A DNA stretch of 64,000 bases from Octopus sinensis (Eukaryota). Shown one piece after another: positions 1 to 55,624 of the stretch (position 1 is the first letter of the stretch; every line of letters starts with the position of its first letter). The stretch spans positions 105,834,001-105,898,000 of the forward strand of contig NC_043003.1 in the NCBI RefSeq assembly GCF_006345805.1, in the 5' to 3' direction. The position numbers were made by a program, and so were the translations under genes. The notes below the pieces were generated by a model. The model was not told where the DNA came from and ran no database searches. It worked only from the letters and a program-made list of their open reading frames with translations.

Positions 1-1854
1 CCATTGGCGGTCTTTTTTCCTCCTCTCACCATTACGATTCTATAATTTAAATTCCCAATTCAATTTCAACTCCCGTTCGATGTCCGCAGCAAGTTCTTAA
101 AAATTTATCTTACTATTTTATTCGTTGTTACTACGTTTCTTCATACATTGTTACGAAAATTTAACCTTTTAGGCTACTTTCAAGCCTTCGCCATAACTTG
201 ATTTATCTTTCTATCTCTCTCTCTACAAAATTTAACCTTAGGCCAGGCTACCTCAAGCCGTAATCCTATCTCTCCCATCTCTTCCCATCTCTTCCATCTT
301 TCATTCAGCCATTGGCGGTCTTTTTTTCCTCCTCTCACCATTACGATTCTATAATTTAAATTCCCAATTCAATTTCAACTCCCGTTCGATGTCCGCAGCA
401 AGTTCTTAAAATTTATCTTACTATTTTATTCGTTGTTACTACGTTTCTTCATACATTGTTACGAAAATTTAACCTTTTAGGCTACTTTCAAGCCTTCGCC
501 ATAACTTGATTTATCTTTCTATCTCTCTCTCTACAAAATTTAACCTTAGGCCAGGCTACCTCAAGCCGTAATCCTATCTCTTCCCATCTCTCCCATCTCT
601 CTCCATCTTTCCATTTTGCCATTGGCGGTCTTTTTTCCTCCTCTCACCATTACGATTCTATAATTTAAATTCCCAATTCAATTTCAACTCCCGTTCGATG
701 TCCGCAGCAAGTTCTTAAAATTTATCTTACTATTTTATTCGTTGTTACTACGTTTCTTCATACATTGTTACGAAAATTTAACCTTTTAGGCTACTTTCAA
801 GCCTTCGCCATAACTTGATTTATCTTTCTATCTCTCTCTCTACAAAATTTAACCTTAGGCCAGGCTACCTCAAGCCGTAATCCTATCTCTTCCCATCTCT
901 TCCCATCTTTCAGCCATTGGCGGTCTTTTTTCCTCCTCTCACCATTACGATTCTATAATTTAAATTCCCAATTCAATTTCAACTCCCGTTCGATGTCCGC
1001 AGCAAGTTCTTAAAAATTTATCTTACTATTTTATTCGTTGTTACTACGTTTCTTCATACATTGTTACGAAAATTTAACCTTTTAGGCTACTTTCAAGCCT
1101 TCGCCATAACTTGATTTATCTTTCTATCTCTCTCTCTACAAAATTTAACCTTAGGCCAGGCTACCTCAAGCCGTAATCCTATCTCTTCCCATCTCTTCCC
1201 ATCTCTTCCCATCTTTCAGCCATTGGCGGTCTTTTTCCTCCTCTCATCACCATTACGATTCTATAATTTAAATTCCCAATTCAATTTCAACTCCCGTTCG
1301 ATGTCCGCAGCAAGTTCTTAAAAATTTATCTTACTATTTTATTCGTTGTTACTACGTTTCTTCATACATTGTTACGAAAATTTAACCTTTTAGGCTACTT
1401 TCAAGCCTTCGCCATAACTTGATTTATCTTTCTATCTCTCTCTCTACAAAATTTAACCTTAGGCCAGGCTACCTCAAGCCGTAATCCTATCTCTTCCCAT
1501 CTCTCATCTCTCTCCCATCTCTTCCCATCTTTCAGCCATTGGCGGTCTTTTTTCCTCCTCTCACCATTACGATTCTATAATTTAAATTCCCAATTCAATT
1601 TCAACTCCCGTTCGATGTCCGCAGCAAGTTCTTAAAAATTTATCTTACTATTTTATTCGTTGTTACTACTACGTTTCTTCATACATTGTTACGAAAATTT
1701 AACCTTTTAGGCTACTTTCAAGCCTTCGCCATAACTTGATTTATTTTTCTATCTCTCTCTCTACAAAATTTAACCTTAGGCCAGGCTACCTCAAGCCGTA
1801 ATCCTATCTCTTCCATCTCTTCCCATCTCTTCCCATCTTTCAGCCATTGGCGGT
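1..1854. repeat. Tandem satellite, ~306-bp unit, 6 copies visible; runs off the window start
   Basis: Unit start CCATTGGCGGT at 1, 309, 619, 914, 1220, 1536 and 1844 (periods 295-316). Units are near-identical; length varies mainly in an (ATCTCTTCCC)n tract. Confidence 0.97.
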
Positions 1855-2912: not shown

Positions 2913-5126
2913 TACGACAGGCTTCTTTCAGTTTCCATCTACCAAATCCACTCACAAGGCTTTGATTAGCCTGAAGCTATAGTAGAATACACTTGCCCAA
3001 GGTGCCACGCAGTGGGACTGAACCCGGAACCATGTGGTTTGTAAGCAAGCTACTTTATTTTATCGAATTTGCCATAAAGGCAGTACATAGAGTATGGTAG
3101 CTTGCGGGCTGGATAAGGACAGTAATGAGGTGAATGATGATGATACAAGGATGATAAGGATGGGAGAAGACAAAAAGCACCCGCCGACTTTTGCTTCTCT
3201 AAAACATTGTTTTTTTTTAAAAAAAAAAATACTAACTGAGGTATTAAACCTCTTACACTTTTATGGGCAAAAATGTCCATTACAATTGAAAACGATTACA
3301 TCAATGAGTCTTTAATAAACTTTTTTGCCTTCTGCAGGCATTCCAGCAACCGCAAGTTGGGATCCTTTACACATGATCTATACTCTTCCTTTGAGAAGGA
3401 GTCCATCATGTGATAAAGGTTCCTTTCTTCCAGTACCTGAGCAGGCCACCCTGGAAAACAAGTCGAGTCTATTAGGTCCCGACTATCAAAGGAACTTTCT
3501 ATATAGTTCTCTACAGCCCCTCCCGAGATAGAAGATGACATGTTCTTCAACATTTCCACTGGGAGGGGCCTTCTTCTTCCTCACCTCTGGTGGCTCACGT
3601 TCCACCGAAGTGGTTTCGGAACATGCCGCCGGTGCACCAGCAACCGCCGGCGATGTCCCTTTTTTTCTTTCTTTTCTTTTTTCCCCCCTTTTTCGTGTTG
3701 GAAGAGTGAGGTTCCTCCGGTTTGTCCGTAGATCCCTCCTTCCCTCCCGCCGCCACGGGATCCATTGGTGGGCAACCATTGTTGTCCACCTTCTTTCTTT
3801 TTTTTTCCTTTCGAGGGGGTTACCTCCTCCTCAACTTTTTCTACAACTCCCTCCTTTATATGCTCCGGAAGCTCCGTTGGAGGAAAAACATCCTCCTCTA
3901 TTAATTTTTCCAGTTCCCTTGCATGGCTGTTGGGGCACTTCCTCTTGATGTGACCCGATTCCAGGCACAGGTGACACTTGGGGGGGGGGGGCGTCCCTCA
4001 AGAGTCACCGGATACCTAGAACCGGCCATCTTTAGAAAATCTGGGAAGACCAGATCTTTGGCTGATTGGGTCCATAGGGTCAAAATTGCTTTCGACCCCA
4101 CCCAATCAGCCACAGGAAGCATTCTAACATTCAAGAGCCTGGCTCCGTTGCCACCCAGACCCCGGCAGATAGTATCCTCTATCCACTCAGGCTCCATACC
4201 GCGTGGCAGCCCACTCACTCAGCCTAATGTCAATGTCCTCCTCCGATATGTGGGGAGAAACAAAATTTTTTCATCTTCCAGGGGCTGACTAGCAAACAAA
4301 CTACCCTCTTTAGGGGTGTCAAACAGCAACCACACTGTTGTGAATTTGACACCCCTTGCAATATACTTGATAGTTGGTAGGTATTCTGCCAACTCTTTTT
4401 CAATTTCGTCCTGAGAGAACACAGTGATGGTGTCGAGTGACTTGGAGTATGTCCTCAACACCACCATTCTCTCATTTCGGCCCTCTATCCACTGCTTGGG
4501 GGGCACAATTTCCCACTCCAGCACAGTGTTCTTCTTTGTTGTCATGATTTAAAACCACAAAGAAACAAAAAGAGTTCAACAAAAGTTCAAATGTTCTAAA
4601 TAAAAGTTCAGTAATAAACACAAAAAAAAAGAACGGAAAGACAGAGCAGAAAAAAAGAACGAAGGAAGACAGTTCAATCCATGGCAACACAATTCCGCGA
4701 CTCCGTAATAATACAGGTACTCCAGTCGCAAAAATAGTCCTTCCTGCCTTGGTACTCCTTGGTAATCCAGTGGAAATTCACAAACACAAAGACAATTTTC
4801 GCAAACAAATTAATTTTTTCAGAGGGGCTACGCCTCCTCAAAAACGCAATTCTCACTGCAAAGTGAGTCTTTATGCACGACCACAGGCAGGCAAATGTCT
4901 GGAGCAGAGTGGAGACTGTTGCTCACCAAAAAATATTAAATACAAGGCAACAAACTCCACTAAGCCCTAAAAAAATACAACAAACGCCTACCTGTAGTCA
5001 AGCCTCAAAGTTCAATATTTCACGACAAAAGACGTGACATCAAGCAGCAAGAACTCTCTGCCAAAAAAAGACATCCGTCTACGACAAACTTTAGCAAGCT
5101 ACTTACCACACAGCCACTCCTATGCC
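2913..5126 (-). mobile_element. tRNA-derived SINE (family A), 5' half, split by a 2-kb insertion
   Basis: Family A sequence at 2913-3055 resumes at 5093-5126 (..CTTACCACACAGCCACTCC); AGCAAGCTACTT is duplicated at the break. Confidence 0.85.
3056..5092 (-). mobile_element. Non-LTR retroelement with only a decayed ORF1/gag-like ORF (RRM-like region plus CCHC zinc knuckle); no RT or endonuclease seen
   Basis: 12-bp TSD AGCAAGCTACTT at 3044-3055 and 5093-5104. ORF starts at ATG 4545, has an in-frame TGA at 4221-4219 and a frameshift in a poly-C run at ~3980-3991, then CHLCLESGHIKRKC (CX2CX4HX4C, 3976-3935) and a K/E-rich tail. AATAAA lies at the 3' junction. Confidence 0.8.
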
Positions 5127-9785: not shown

Positions 9786-10385
9786 TAATGTATGCATTTT
9801 CTTACCTCGTAGCTAACTAGCTCCCACCAGTTTCACATTTACTTTCAATATCGCAACTTATGTTGATAAAGGACAAAGCAGAGGAGCTTAACCTAAGCCT
9901 AAATATCCAAATATAGTTTAATAACGTGGTCTTATTATCAATACTGATAAGATGAAAATACTTATGAATAGTGGTACTTGTTACATTAGCTCAAGTACAA
10001 GTAAAGAAGGTTACTGTATTTAAATAAGTTATATCAGGCACCACTAAATATCATGAATAGAACAGGCTTTTGTCAGCCTTTTCTCTCCTTAATTGGTATG
10101 TTTAGAGACAACAGAACATTAGATTCATTATTGTCTACTTCTTTATGCATTCATGGTTTGAATGGAGTTTATTGAAGCAGATTTTCTATGGCCAAATACC
10201 CTTCATGTTGCCAACCTGTTTCAAAGTAAGGTAATTCTTTACTCCATGCCAGACATGTTCTCACAGAATACTGGAAATGGATGACACTGCTTGTATCACG
10301 GTGCTTTACAGTGTGCTGGGGATTTACAACTATTGTGCAATGTAAAGACATGGAGACATCAACACATACGTACAATAGGTTTTTT

Positions 10386-10699
10386 GTCATGTTATTTACA
10401 TTTGACGGATATTTGTCCTCATCTTGTTTGTTGTTAACACAACATTTCGGCTGATGTACCCTCCAGCCTTCATCAGGTGTCTTGGGGAAATTTCGAACCT
10501 GGGTTCTCGTTCCTAAGTTATTATTATTATTCAGGTCACTGCCTGGAATGGAACTCGGTATACCATACCAAGACACCTGATGAAGACTGGAGGGTATATT
10601 AGCCGAAATGTTGTGTTAACAACAAACAAGATGAGGACAAATATCCATCAAATGTAAATAACGTAAATAATTCCTCATCTCTTAAATATAGAACTGTAT
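10386..10699. mobile_element. tRNA-head/hammerhead element, copy 1 (two arms in inverted orientation)
   Basis: Inverted arms ~10391-10485 and ~10568-10662, each with CTGATGA..GAAA. B-box remnant near 10545-10558 (-). Ends ..ATAGAACTGTA. TAGGTTTTTT duplicated at 10376-10385 and 10700-10709. Confidence 0.85.
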
Positions 10700-11830: not shown

Positions 11831-12107
11831 TCATCATCATCATCGTTTAACGTCCGCTTTCCATGCTAGCATGGGTTGGACGGTTCAACTGGGGTCTGGG
11901 AAGCCCGAAGGCTGCACCAGGCCAGTCAGATCTGGCAGTGTTTCTACAGCTGGATGCCCTTCCTAACGCCAACCACTCCGTGAGTGTAGTGGGTGCTTTT
12001 TATGTGCCACCGACACAGGTGCCAGACGAGGCTGGCAGACGGCCACGCTCGGATGGTGTTTTTTTTTTATGTGCCACAGACACAGGTGCCAGACGAGGCT
12101 GGCGAAC
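11831..12107 (-). mobile_element. RTE LINE 3' fragment
   Basis: (CAT)nCGTTTAACGTCCGCTTTCCATGCTAGC..GCCCTTCCTAACGCC plus 3'UTR repeat units. Confidence 0.88.
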
Positions 12108-16307: not shown

Positions 16308-16502
16308 TGGCACCTGTGCAGGTGGCACGTAAAAAGCACCCACTACACTCACGGAGTGGTTGGCGTTAGGAAGGGCATCCAGCTGTAGAAACACTGCCAG
16401 ATCAGACTGGAGCCTGGTGCAGCCCTGGCTTCCCAGACTCCGGTCGAACTGTCCAACCCATGCTAGTGCGGAAAACGGACGTTAAACGATGATGATGATG
16501 AT
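16308..16502 (+). mobile_element. RTE LINE 3' fragment
   Basis: Same tail family, ending GGACGTTAAAC(GAT)n. Confidence 0.88.
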
Positions 16503-20984: not shown

Positions 20985-21970
20985 CATCATCATCATCGTT
21001 TAACGTCTGCTTTCCATGCTAGCATCGGTTGGACGATTTGACTGAGGTTTGGCGAACCAGATGGCTGCACCAGGCTCCAATCTGATCTGGCAGAGTTTCT
21101 ACAGCTGGATGCCCTTCCTAATGCCAACCACTCCGAGAGTGTAGTGGGTGCTTTTACGTGCCATTGGCACGAGGGCCAGTCAGGCGGTACTGGCAACAGC
21201 CACGCTCAAATGGTGCTTTTTACATGCCACCTACACAGGAGCCAGTCCAGCGGTACTGGCAACGACCTCACTTGAATGGTTTTTCACGTGCCACCAGCAC
21301 AAGTGCCAGTAAGGCAATGCTGGTAACGATCACGCTCGAATGGTGCTTTTTATGTGCCACCGGCACAGAAGCCAGTTGCTCTGGCAACAATCACGCTTGG
21401 ATGGTACTCTTAGTGCTCCACTAGCATGGATGTCAGTTATTGAATTTGATTTCGATTTCACTTGCCTCAACAGGTCTTTGCAAGCAGAATTTAGTGTCCA
21501 ATGAAAGAAAGGTACGCATAAGTGGGCTGGTTACACCACTGGCATAGGCCACAAGGTTATGGTCTCACTTGGCTTGCTGGGTCTTCTCAAGCACAGCATA
21601 TTTCCAGAGGTCCCGGTCACTAGTCATTGCCTCGGTGAGGCCTAATGTTCGGTCATGCTTCACCACCTCATCCCAGGTCTTCCTGGGTCTACCTCTTCCA
21701 CAGGTTCCCTCAACCGCTAGGGTGTGGCACTTTTTCACACAGCTATCCTCATCCATTCTCGCCACATGACCATACCAGCGCAGTCGTCTCTCTTGCACAC
21801 CACATCTGATGCTTCTTAGGTCCAACTTTTCTCTCAAGGTACTTACACTGTCGAGTATGCACACTGACAATACATGTCCATCAGAGCATACTGGCTTCCT
21901 TGCGAGCTTACGCATGTCCTCAGCAGTCACGGCCCATGTTTCACTGCCATGTTGCATGGCTGTTCATACA
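20985..21970 (-). mobile_element. RTE-clade LINE 3' portion (RT C-terminus, repeat-containing 3'UTR, (GAT)n tail)
   Basis: ORF 21957-21565 has HGSETWA..RRLRWYGHVARMDEDSCVKK..GRGRPRKTW, motifs typical of RTE ORF2 C-termini. Confidence 0.92.
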
Positions 21971-29362: not shown

Positions 29363-29570
29363 TACTCTCTTTACTCTCTCTTTTACTTGTTTCAGTCATT
29401 TGACTGCAGCCAGGCTGGAGCACCGCCTTTAGTCGAGCAAATCGACCCCGGGACTTATTCATTGTAAGCCCAGTACATATTCTATCGGTCTCTTTTGCCG
29501 AACAGCTAAGTGACGGCGACGTAAACACACCAGCGTCAGTTGTCAAGCAATGCTAAGGGGACAAACACAG

Positions 29571-29605
<35 letters not shown>

Positions 29606-29776
29606 CATATATACGACGGGCTTCTTTCAGTTTCCGTCTACCAAATCCACTCACAAGGCATTGGTCGGCCCGGGGCTATAGCAGAAGACACTTGCCCAAG
29701 ATGCCACGCAGTGGGACTGAACCCGGAACCATGTGGTTGGTAAGCAAGCTACTTACCACACAGCCACTCCTGCGCC
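29363..29776 (-). mobile_element. SINE family A, full length, inside a (TA)n tract
   Basis: Family A sequence with (TA)n on both sides. Confidence 0.92.
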
Positions 29777-30239
29777 TATATATATATATATATATATAAA
29801 TATATACACCTTTCACTAATGTATAGAGATGAAGGATATAAAACATTGGTAAGAAACCCAAAAAGCAATTGCTTTTCAAAACAAATCCCTTGTGATATTT
29901 GTTCAGCATAGAGTCACACAGGTGCTTCCTTATCACTTCTGCAGTTAGAAATGCCATGAATCAATAACTGGCTCATTGTAGACCTGTAACTAACAATGCC
30001 TTTATTCTCTAATTGCAATATAAAATATTGTTCTGAGTTCAACTTTGCCTTTCATCCTTTTGCAGTCAAATTAAGTACCAGTTGACTGGCCCCCTCCCCT
30101 AAATTTTGGGCCTTGTGCCTAGACTAGAAAAGAATATAAACATTCAAGGGTTTTTCAAATATATTTCATGCTTAAAATTAAAATTAAAAAAAAAAAAAAA
30201 TCAGGACATTTAAATAAAAATAGAAAAGATTTCACCTAC

Positions 30240-39600: not shown

Positions 39601-40299
39601 TGAGGGAGATAAATTAATATTAATTTTAATATCAATTTAAAACCAGTAGTCCAGCATACAAAAATCTGAGGAGTCAGAGAAAATTCTAATATATGTGTAT
39701 ATTGGCAGGGCTTACTGCTAGGGAGTCGGCCGTATGCTAGAAATAGACCATCAACGGTCAAACTACAAGGAAATTCTCTAGAGGGAAAAATACAGCGAAC
39801 ACCAGAACCAACTTTGGCGGGCATGACAGATGAAAATTTATATAAAAAACAGAATTAAATGCATACCTCGGTTTCAGCCTTAACAAGAGAATTACTAATG
39901 CAATCCAAATGTCCGTGCTTCTTCAGTGCATCCGTTCATAGTAATGTAAGCGGAAAAGCTAACCCCAGCTTTCGTGCCAGTACAGACACGTGTGTAGCTT
40001 TACCGATTACACTAGTGATAAAACTTCAAAGACATTTGAAGTTTAGCTTTTCCGCTTACATTACTATGAACGGATGCACTGAAGAAGCACGGACATTTGG
40101 ATTGCATTAGTAATTCTCTTGTTAAGGCTGAAACCGAGGTATGCATTTAATTTTGTTTTTTATATAAATTTTCATCTGTCATGCCCACCAAAGTTGGTTC
40201 TGGTGTTCGCTGTATTTTTCCCTCTAGAGAATTTCCTTGTAGTTTGACCGTTGATGATCTATTTCTAGCATACGGCCGACACCCTAGCAGTAAGCCCTG

Positions 40300-40307
<8 letters not shown>
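39596..40307. mobile_element. Penelope-like fold-back insertion: 265-bp inverted arms with an 80-bp spacer
   Basis: Arms 39698-39962 and 40043-40307 differ at only a few positions; each holds a hammerhead motif; an extra ~100-bp extension lies on the left only. Confidence 0.85.
40074..40146 (+). ncRNA. Type I hammerhead ribozyme motif (mirror copy on - strand at 39859-39931)
   Basis: Stem I ATGCA/TGCAT; core CTGAAGA (40079-40085); stem II AGC/GCT with a long insert; GAAA (40130-40133); stem III AC-CGAG-GT; cleavage triplet GUA. Confidence 0.75.
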
Positions 40308-40347
<40 letters not shown>

Positions 40348-50180: not shown

Positions 50181-51464
50181 GACTACTTTACCCAATGCAT
50201 AATCTTTGGCAGCAAGATATATTTTTGAGGGAGATTTAGCTATCTTTTCTACTAAGTTGAGCAACTGCATAGAAAGCTTCCTTGTTGGTTTGCTAGAGCT
50301 ATTTTACATCTATTAATACCTGTGATATACAGGTAAGAGTTATGCTTGCAACAAGGCTTTATCTAAACAAAAGTATCTTTGTGTCTTACATAAGGTGTTA
50401 ATGTCACAAAATTGTTTAGAGTAGTTTTTATTTTTTTTGAAGTGTGGTTTGAAAGTATTGTACGAAATAAGGAAGAAAGAATTATAATATTCTTCAAATT
50501 TCCTTGTTTAGTACTTATCTAATTTAACATTTGGTAAATGTGTCTTTTTGCCTGTTGTTACCAATGCCTGAATAAAAATTTAAAAATTATAAAAGGAAAG
50601 ATCAATCAATTGATAATAAACTGAAATACAATCAGTCCATATGTTGGCAACATGATCCTCCCAATGTACAACAAATATTTATTACAGCAAGAAACGTGTG
50701 CTTGTCTTGCTATCATCTTTAGCCTCTCAACACCTGGCATAAAGCCACCTCCTCACCCACCTCCCAAATCCTCTCTCCGTCACATAGTTGAGAGGTTTTT
50801 CTTTTCCTTTTCCTGTTCTTGCAAGTAGTGCCAGGGATGCAAGAAAAGCACCTAGTGCAGTGGTTGGTGTTAGAAATGGCATCTAGCCATAGAAACCATG
50901 CCAAAACCGACACTGGAGCTTGGCACTGCTTTGCAGCTTGCCAGATCCTGTCGAACCGTCCAACCCATGCCTGCATGGAAAGTGGATGTTAAATGATGAT
51001 GATGATAATAGTAATGTAGAGTACTAAAGAAATAAACGAATCTTTCAAAGCTGAACTTGTGCATGCTAAATTTAAAATCCATAATTCTGGTTGAGCTGAT
51101 CTGCTGTGAAAAGCCAAGAATCCTAATGTTTTGAACAAACCACTTTGTTGGAGGGAGAATAAGAAAAAGTGTCTCTCTTTTCAGTGAAGGGTTTTATGAA
51201 TTTATCCTGATTTACAAGCTTTGCTAAATAATTTTTGCCCTCCTCTGCTCAGCAGAAATTATTTGCCGTCTTTGTGTGTGTTTTGTAACCAGTCCAATGT
51301 ATCAATTCTTGAATTAACCCTTTCGATACCAACCGGCTGAATCAGCCTCTGGCTTGTTTGCAAAAGTTTTGAATTAAAATCTTCCACCAAACCTTAGTCA
51401 CAATTTATGTTCCTAACACTAGCTGAATGATAACTAAGTTATTTTACTAAATTCTTTGTTATAT

Positions 51465-51800
51465 ATATTCTTTACATGTGACATATTTGTCCTCATCTTG
51501 TTTGTTGTTAACACAACGTTTCAGCTGATATGGCGTAGTGGTTAAGAGTGCGGGCTACTAACCCCAAGATTCTGAGTTCGATCTCAGGTAGTGACCTGGA
51601 TAATAATAATAATTATAATAATAACATCGAAAAATACCTTAGGAATGAGAACCCAGGTTTGAAATTTCCCCAAGGCACCTGATGAAGGCTGGAGGGTATA
51701 TCAGCCGAAACGTTGTGTTAACAACAAACAAGAAGAGGACAGATATCTGTCAAATGTAATTAATGTACATAATTCCTCATCTCTTAAGTATAGAACTGTA
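51465..51800 (+). mobile_element. tRNA-head/hammerhead element, copy 2 (most complete)
   Basis: TSD TTTGTTATAT at 51455-51464 and 51801-51810; inverted partial tail ~51471-51530; A box TGGCGTAGTGG 51531-51541; T-arm CTGAG-TTCGAT-CTCAG 51572-51587; (AAT)n; hammerhead; end ..ATAGAACTGTA. Confidence 0.88.
51674..51719 (+). ncRNA. Minimal type I hammerhead ribozyme motif
   Basis: GGCAC-CTGATGA-A-GGCTG-gagggtatat-CAGCC-GAAA-CGTT-GTGTT: intact core, 5-bp stem II, palindromic ACGT stem III, GUU triplet. Confidence 0.75.
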
Positions 51801-51988
51801 TTTGTTATATTTAAAATTAATTGAAAGAAATACAGAGCATCTCAACAGAAATATGGTAACAAAAGGGTCAAACAATTTAGAAGAAAGTGGGTATTACTAT
51901 ACATGCTTTTCACAAATCATCTAATCTATCTTTCATCCACTCTACTGTTCATCCACCACTACTACCACCACCACAACCATTACTACTA

Positions 51989-54816: not shown

Positions 54817-54964
54817 ATATCCAACCTAAATCTTTTACTGGTTTGCTTTCAAACCAGTCAGCTCTGGCCTCTCACACCTACCCTGCAATGTCATTTTAAA
54901 AATAATCACATCATTGAAATCTTGAAGCTACGAGATAATGCATGACTACTTCAAAGCAGCAATG

Positions 54965-55624
54965 CAGTTTTATATTTAACCCTTTCGTAACTGTATTTAT
55001 TTTGAGATGCTCTGTGTTTCTTTCAATTATTTAAAATATAACAAAGAATTTAGTAAAATAACTCAGTTATCATTAAGCTAGTGTTAGGAATATAAATTGC
55101 AAGTAGGGTTTGGTGGTATGTTTTAATGCAAAACTTATGAAAACAAGACATTTGTACTACAGAGCCAGAGCCGGATTTGGCCAGGTTGGTAACAAAAGGG
55201 TTAAGAGATGAGGAATTATGTACATTATTCACATTATTTACATTTGACGAATATTTGTCCTCATCTTGTTGGTTGTTAACACAACATTTCGGTTAATATA
55301 CCCTCCAGTCTTCATCAGGTGTCTTGGGGAAATTTCAAACCTGGCTTCTCATTCCTAAGGTATTTTTCGATGTTATTATTATTCAGGTCACTGCCTGGAA
55401 TCAGGCTACTAACCCCAAGATTCCGAGTTCGATTCCAGGCTGTGATCTGAATAATAATAATAATAAAATTAATATTAATAACATTGAAAAATAGCTTAGG
55501 AATGAGAACCTAGGTTCGAAATTTCCCCAAGACACCCGATGAAAGCTGGAGGGTATATCAGCCGAAATGTTGTGTTAACAACAAACAAGATGAGGACAAA
55601 TATCTGTCAAATGTAAATAATGTA
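54965..55624. mobile_element. tRNA-head/hammerhead element, copy 3 (inverted arms), interrupted by MITE D1
   Basis: Minus arm ~54965-54979 plus 55201-55401; plus arm ~55402-55624 with GGCTACTAACCCC..GAGTTCGATTCC and a hammerhead (core mutated to CCGATGA). TTCAAAGCA..ATG lies on both flanks. Confidence 0.82.
54980..55200. mobile_element. piggyBac-type MITE D1 (221 bp)
   Basis: TTAA|CCCTTT...AAAGGG|TTAA (TSDs 54976-54979 and 55201-55204). Confidence 0.9.

Follow-up and report, generated by a model that had tools for sequence, protein, structure and literature searches.

The window analysed here is a stretch of 64,000 nucleotides of Octopus sinensis DNA (contig NC_043003.1, positions 105,834,001 to 105,898,000, forward strand). 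The short repeat at window coordinates 51455–51810 is in our reading a 5′-truncated pseudo-LTR (pLTR) copy from a decayed Penelope/Poseidon-type Penelope-like element (PLE), the pLTR opening with a tRNA-like cassette whose A and B boxes likely, though far from certainly, served as a Pol III promoter. The parts listed in the initial annotation (an A/B-box head, an (AAT)n run, a minimal hammerhead, an inverted partial copy and a 10-bp TSD) can all be read in the sequence. They are given below with the neighbouring insertions.

51455..51464, no strand: left copy of the 10-bp TSD, matching 51801..51810
51465..51531, minus strand: inverted, 5′-truncated copy of the element's 3′ part, matching about 51698–51772
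51528..51598, plus strand: tRNA-like cassette, a degenerate cloverleaf with which the pLTR begins; present here from +5 on
51531–51541, plus strand: A box, inside the tRNA-like cassette
51552–51564, plus strand: anticodon-like arm, inside the tRNA-like cassette
about 51574–51584, plus strand: B box, inside the tRNA-like cassette
51600..51624, plus strand: (AAT)n linker, differing in length between copies; a second, weaker 5′-end hotspot
51645..51800, plus strand: first 52 codons of the Penelope/Poseidon ORF, with an in-frame ATG at 51645 and a match to the N-terminus of homolog P0003
51674..51719, plus strand: putative minimal type I hammerhead within the ORF start, with a palindromic ACGU helix III and a predicted cut after 51714
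51773..51800, plus strand: optional PLE tail of about 28 nt, lying between two 3′-end clusters (bimodal 3′ ends)
51801..51810, no strand: right copy of the TSD
10386..10698, plus strand: second window insertion, a long inverted arm and a forward piece from the hammerhead; 10-bp TSD at 10376/10700
54963..55624, plus strand: third window insertion, an inverted arm and a forward piece from head position +30, without the tail

Support for the TSD at 51455/51801 comes from an unoccupied host-repeat copy (54980–55200), in which the target is present once. The inverted copy at 51465–51531 is joined to the forward copy through 3–4 nt of microhomology, the tail runs to 51800 without poly-A, and the ORF start of this copy meets a stop at codon 6. 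Three tRNA-headed copies had been counted in the 64 kb; the three insertions stand, but an A box is present only on the forward copy of the one at 51465. The forward piece of 10386..10698 has no tRNA head, and 54963..55624 has its inverted arm split by a TTAA-flanked MITE (54980–55200) and is bounded by a 9-bp TSD-like repeat at 54950/55626. This MITE, with CCC...GGG ends, occurs at 51318–51867 as well as at 54980–55200 and is presumably piggyBac-like. The PLE piece at 51465 is nested in one MITE copy, and at 54965 another MITE copy is in turn nested in the PLE piece, from which it follows that the periods of activity of the two families overlapped.

Several of the 30 best copies share a common sequence upstream of the head, which holds the C-terminus and stop codon of an ORF encoding reverse transcriptase (RT) and a GIY-YIG endonuclease (EN), and the head lies about 40 nt downstream of that stop. 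From 49 RT-bearing loci, three duplicates were removed; in 29 of the 46 independent loci the alignment continues past EN and the stop into the head, without a break in 25, and the other 17 alignments end earlier. One locus (L111) has a natural open frame of 551 aa that is 42% identical over 548 aa to P0064, a protein with an above-cut-off GIY-YIG match, and of the 1,703 homologs found those listed carry PF00078 and/or PF26215. Pfam searches with the degenerate L111 and L045 proteins gave no RT or GIY-YIG match and a PDB sequence search gave no match; the L111 copy lacks one Cys of two that other copies retain. The element, with its domains assigned by homology, is a PLE of the EN+ kind. Its RT–EN linker (alignment A1) has no CX2-5CxxC finger such as is reported for Neptune and Nematis (PMC8557442, available text), so by these domain criteria it is of the Penelope/Poseidon type. 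The family appears extinct, since none of 150 RT matches scored has an open frame longer than 551 aa (full-length homologs have about 830–850 aa) and the copies are about 6% diverged outside CpG sites.

The order of parts in the element is ORF stop, about 40 nt, a small hairpin, the tRNA cassette, (AAT)n, ATG, hammerhead, tail and the rest of the ORF. Locus L117 runs from head through AAT, hammerhead, tail and ORF to a further head, with its 5′ pLTR starting at head position −2. Among 27 independent loci from the first 30 of 178 matches to a tail word, 14 continue into the ORF. The ATG at 51645 starts a reading frame that spans hammerhead and tail, and the encoded peptide aligns with the N-terminus of P0003, a protein from another source with the same hammerhead-encoded peptide at its N-terminus. 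A tblastn search with P0003 residues 1–140 matched the window unit at E 8.5e-7 and longer copies down to 2e-35, and the 9-bp duplication common in the tail preserves the reading frame. The segment 51645–51800 of the unit, described earlier as non-coding, is thus the N-terminus of the PLE ORF. An intron in the tail (GT...AG, 38–47 nt) was considered and rejected, the frame being open throughout and aligning to P0003. Because the head follows the ORF stop and the hammerhead and tail are the first 52 codons, we take the supposed SINE body to be where the PLE's coding region begins, and the unit as a whole to be the element's own pLTR plus tail. The earlier picture of a SINE that captured a Penelope terminal repeat and parasitises it gives way here, the head sitting in the autonomous element's own pLTR. 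The mode of mobilisation proposed at the same time was correctly seen as Penelope-type, with RT/GIY-YIG, a minimal hammerhead, inverted 5′ copies and no poly-A. The features of a PLE are present: a partial tandem pLTR overlapping the ORF start, an optional tail, inverted 5′-truncated copies and a minimal hammerhead. The 3′ ends are bimodal, with 52 of 116 at body positions 138–153 and 55 of 116 at 169–177, about 28 nt apart.

Among the nearest counterparts, the PLEs of the Penelope/Poseidon clade, is Poseidon of Anolis carolinensis (PAc), which in the available text of PMC11167929 likewise has RT with a C-terminal GIY-YIG, a pLTR overlapping the ORF start, AT-rich targets, a hammerhead at the ORF start and two 3′-end clusters within the ORF about 30 nt apart (here at about ORF nt 117–132 and 148–156). 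The present pLTR, in contrast, opens with a tRNA-like A/B-box cassette, of a kind that this text does not describe for PAc, and (AAT)n; about 70% of head-bearing copies start at the cassette, and the ATG lies upstream of the hammerhead core. Penelope of Adineta vaga similarly has pLTRs of about 200 bp containing the first ORF codons, an optional tail of ~31 bp, an inverted 5′ pLTR, TSDs of 8–10 bp and palindromes at the pLTR 5′ end, and its pLTRs are described with TATA/Inr-like motifs and no tRNA cassette, the word 'tRNA' occurring 0 times in the main text (PMC3846280). Chlamys non-autonomous PLEs (MRC1) are also short, PLE-mobilised and share the 3′ end of the autonomous family, but belong to a different clade, and neither a hammerhead nor a tRNA head is reported for them in the text available (PMC8557442). 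A search of the open-access literature found no PLE with a tRNA-headed pLTR, and what is new in this family is the tRNA cassette with which its pLTR begins. PLEs and SINEs are both abundant in octopus genomes (PMC13282606, PMC8967140, available text), and the family may already be annotated in repeat databases or TE libraries.

The putative hammerhead consists of helix I (51674–78/51715–19), a core (51679–85) followed by one unpaired A, helix II (51687–92/51701–06), GAAA at 51707–10 and a palindromic ACGT, with the predicted cut site after 51714. Its presence in the unit, as first annotated, holds in every feature given for metazoan PLE minimal hammerheads in the available text of PMC4209133: a 5-bp helix I, a 6-bp helix II, an unpaired base between 9 and 10.1, G10.1–C11.1, palindromic 15.2–16.2, no loop 3, and thousands of dispersed single copies. 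With no difference from those ribozymes, a minimal hammerhead in this pLTR is expected and not new. All 11 core positions are kept in 49 of 113 of the family's own copies, and outside CpG sites just one change is frequent, at the free position 7 (19/115). Rfam returned no hammerhead match. The same motif with unrelated helix II sequences occurs at 13 of 79 related metagenome loci (10 distinct), with two matches in the antisense control. In the related Anolis Poseidon, cleavage is reported to need protein and to be dispensable for insertion, and uncleaved RNA to be the main substrate (PMC11167929, available text). The putative hammerhead is inherited Penelope hardware, probably not needed for insertion. 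Among the RNA-seq joints listed, from libraries ill-suited to circular RNA, none is a junction at the cut site, and nothing in the data speaks for a self-cleaved or circular RNA as template.

The head gives an Rfam tRNA score of 14.5 bits (E 4.7), with model positions 8–63 in register. ARAGORN found no tRNA in the window and Rfam no match there at the gathering threshold, a second copy of the unit has no tRNA match, and low-threshold ARAGORN output was discarded as noise. The head has no cloverleaf fold (z = 0.17). Aligned to the genome's own tRNAs (27 genes of nine anticodon classes, from 30 of 46 reported tRNA loci) it scores 59, above all 200 shuffles (maximum 49), and Ala, Cys and Arg tRNAs score alike as parent. 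The tRNA likeness of the head is on these comparisons real, though weak as structure. The A and B boxes are intact while the cloverleaf stems are lost; they fit the type 2 Pol III consensus, and the likeness to a Pol III promoter first pointed out in the annotation is borne out to that extent.

Eight insertions in 1.0 Mb of evenly spaced stretches (nine match clusters, two of them one split insertion) extrapolate to about 22,000 copies (95% range 9,000–43,000) in the 2.72-Gb genome. Copies are about 6% diverged. TSDs of 7–12 nt were found at 8 of 20 copies tested versus 34 of 380 mismatched control pairs. Comparison of 62 short with 74 ORF-linked copies gave 26 variable columns, none significant after correction (lowest p 0.018, at a CpG site); subfamily variants are found in both groups, and non-CpG divergence is 5.3–5.8% in short versus 4.4–7.2% in ORF-linked copies. 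Because variants and age are common to both groups, we conclude from these alignments that the short copies derive from the same masters at the same time and form no separate SINE lineage. Eleven of 85 head-bearing copies are without the body and have no common alternative tail.

To locate 5′ ends we numbered the head from the first base of the tRNA (+1) and took the first 90 loci in chromosome order with an exact head 18-mer, of 5,447, leaving 86 after four were dropped (one inverted arm of the same insertion and three segmental duplicates). Four identical insertion copies with their flanks (L301, L302, L304 and L305, at 21.69–22.60 Mb of sequence C1 of the assembly) reflect segmental duplication or assembly redundancy. 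Among the 86 independent copies, 62 start at −8 to +19, 23 reach the ORF side and one starts at −11, where five apparent starts at −11 to −22 are fold-back arms and the head anchor is blind to starts beyond +29. Exact 18-mer counts in the genome, which take in inverted arms and depend on local mutation rates, are 883 (EN, about −200), 1,172 (−26 to −9), 5,447 (+30 to +47), 8,233 (hammerhead) and 12,775 (after the hammerhead), with reversed-pattern controls for the head and post-hammerhead words giving 0. Along the last 175 nt on the ORF side the counts rise 1.33-fold, within the 56 nt at the head 4.65-fold, and in each of the next two intervals 1.5-fold; the gain per nt is 0.027 at the cassette versus 0.0016–0.009 elsewhere.

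The outer edge of this hotspot (−7/−8) coincides with the small palindrome or hairpin just before the tRNA. Of the 62 short copies, 34 adjoin an inverted arm (in 9 cases through the hairpin), four have a short palindrome, and 24 are scored clean, although in a few of these an inverted piece occurs at some distance; many of the clean ends fall at −5 to +2, past the 3′ arm of the hairpin. The same fold-back ends at the head occur in sequencing runs labelled as three other organisms, and in two of these the contigs listed include some that connect ORF and head. A further 5′-end hotspot is the (AAT)n run, at which about 7 of 30 hammerhead-anchored loci (L271–L300) begin. Among nine pLTR–ORF junction copies that keep part of the 5′ half of the hammerhead, one starts at the head and five at the AAT run.

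In the mechanism we propose, transcription by Pol III would begin about 6 nt ahead of the cassette, at master pLTRs as well as at dispersed copies, and would yield an RNA of roughly 280 nt that includes the opening ~155 nt of the ORF. The element's RT-endonuclease would bind the ORF segment and nick AT-rich DNA, by analogy with Anolis Poseidon, whose protein is reported to need the first 172 nt of the ORF and to start reverse transcription at two internal ORF sites (PMC11167929, available text); since the short RNA would hold the segment that the Anolis protein needs, it could be retroposed by the element's own enzyme. Reverse transcription would begin at one of two internal sites, producing ends with or without the tail, and the cDNA would run off at the RNA 5′ end, followed by direct joining or by fold-back on the terminal palindrome; alternatively, it would be joined by microhomology to an inverted second cDNA, in either case leaving TSDs of 8–12 bp. 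A cDNA ending at −5 to −7 could fold back to give head-to-head copies. A Pol III start is favoured because the boxes are intact with the stems lost, and because of its position (the start at type 2 Pol III promoters lies 10–20 nt before the A box), the clean ends at −5 to +2 and the smaller count step at the hammerhead.

The main alternative, which we consider possible but rather unlikely, accepts the same PLE pLTR and sees in the cassette only what remains, passively, of a SINE or tRNA that once landed in the 3′ UTR, the short copies being ordinary 5′ truncations of long transcripts caused by cDNA snap-back at the hairpin (−7 to +5) or by RT stalling. The coincidence of the hotspot edge with the hairpin fits this account, as do the 13 of 62 short copies that fold back on it, the clustering there of deletions in long copies (3 of 18 ORF-linked copies have deletions in the −6 to +17 zone, besides a D-loop loss in L343), the descent of short and long copies from one family, and the self-priming at pLTR palindromes proposed in PMC3846280 (available text). 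But the hairpin is weak (−5.4 kcal/mol as RNA, −2.8 as DNA), weaker than helix II of the hammerhead (−9.3), where the count step is much smaller despite the more stable hairpin; about 20 copies end cleanly without fold-back, and the promoter boxes have outlasted the stems. An internal promoter for Pol II, of the kind known from Drosophila Penelope and Chlamys, with a start that happens to fall at the tRNA relic and dispersed pLTRs giving short RNAs, we regard as distinctly improbable. Pol II start sites in Penelope and Chlamys pLTRs (PMC8557442, available text), TATA/Inr motifs in rotifer elements (PMC3846280, available text) and the need to translate the ORF from an ATG about 120 nt downstream speak for it. 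The pLTR promoters known in PLEs are of the Pol II kind (PMC8557442, available text), a point that also counts against the Pol III reading. Against a Pol II promoter, the observed 5′ boundary falls at the position expected from a type 2 Pol III promoter.

The reading first given, an independent tRNA-SINE lineage with a captured Penelope terminal repeat, mobilised in trans and possibly via self-cleaved or circular RNA, is already largely refuted and we attach very little probability to it. Short tRNA-headed copies do outnumber ORF-linked ones by about 3:1 and carry TSDs, but the head occurs in ORF-bearing elements, hammerhead and tail are coding, no alternative tail is common to the body-less copies, no monomer arrays were noticed, and no diagnostic or age difference sets the short copies apart as a lineage of their own. 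Like tRNA-derived SINEs, which in octopus were reportedly described by Ohshima and Okada in 1994, the family has a tRNA-related head with intact A and B boxes and a lost cloverleaf, and short dispersed copies with TSDs; unlike them it has no LINE-derived tail, the sequence is integral to an autonomous element, and no non-coding, independently propagating lineage was found. SM-alpha of Schistosoma is a type I hammerhead repeat of about 300 nt with a link to Pol III. Metazoan non-LTR retrozymes are likewise repeats of about 300 nt with a type I hammerhead, but in the available text of PMC7229834 they have canonical hammerheads, tandem monomers, circular RNA and no ORF of their own, whereas here the minimal hammerhead lies within a PLE ORF start, the copies are dispersed and inverted, and the element bears an ORF. 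In the loci read we noticed no monomers arranged in tandem from one hammerhead to the next. We therefore classify the family as a PLE, not a SINE or a retrozyme, the short copies of which probably work like SINEs.

That Pol III also made a full-length RNA is more doubtful, because the TTTT test is weak and only one of the nine junction copies starts at the head. The sense strand has 0 TTTT runs in 2,376 majority columns of the element, for which P is 0.017 in a mononucleotide control and 0.10 and 0.24 in Markov controls; TTTT is likewise missing from 5 of 17 other PLE ORF stretches. The TTTT-free sense strands are those of L361, L372, L376, L377 and L390, with 1.3–3.2 runs expected in each, and T-run avoidance may be wider among PLEs. 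An autonomous Penelope with a tRNA-derived Pol III promoter, a terminator-free 2.8-kb sense strand and its own SINE-like RNA, LINE and SINE both, is on present evidence an unlikely extension of the proposal. RNA-seq runs labelled as another organism (about 6% read, apparently unstranded) gave no peaks of starts, ends or cleavage. The pLTR depth there is about 200 times that of the ORF start (with the ORF N-terminus and part of the pLTR covered), and is not evidence of expression because it is of the same order as the DNA copy ratios.

The order of parts in the window unit recurs in L361 (1989–2170 and 4780–4960), a distant PLE of 38% aa identity whose contig contains a repeat unit of 2,791 bp: its pLTR has motifs resembling A and B boxes, then an AAT stretch, then a minimal hammerhead. 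Its cassette, of borderline tRNA origin, has no Rfam tRNA match and scores 48 against a shuffle maximum of 47, the case having been chosen after the fact; as no more than a lead, it hints that a tRNA-headed pLTR arose more than once. The other nine distinct hammerhead-bearing relatives, some on short contigs, have no A/B-like boxes. Locus L370 was rejected as a parallel, its tRNA-like match lying outside the pLTR.

This family bears on two general questions, how PLEs are transcribed and what causes their truncated and inverted inserts: its natural 5′ ends gather in their thousands at a single point, where a tRNA-type promoter and a tiny hairpin coincide. The two explanations, template end and self-priming, are directly testable in the existing Poseidon in vitro system. 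A Pol III start would offer one way for a PLE to become a source of SINE-like elements, and some annotated tRNA-SINEs in repeat-rich animal genomes may be Penelope terminal repeats; should the Pol III step fail, what is left is an extinct Poseidon family of the ordinary kind, whose 3′ UTR holds a tRNA relic.

Other repeats in the window include high-copy short repeats of families D1, D17 and D20 (for example at 29570–29795, 11929–12025 and 16425–16502), which have tRNA-like heads unlike that of the 51465 unit, or (GAT)n/(TA)n tails. A 274-bp inverted repeat at 39689–40316, 98% complementary with an 80-nt spacer, is probably a young MITE. A short frame at 3581–3997 with a CCHC zinc-knuckle-like motif is possibly a retrotransposon ORF1 remnant, and a minus-strand frame at 21565–21963 resembles what we take to be the C-terminal end of an RTE-type LINE protein. 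The left end of the window (1–1814) is a tandem array of about 308-bp units in six copies that are 68–100% alike.
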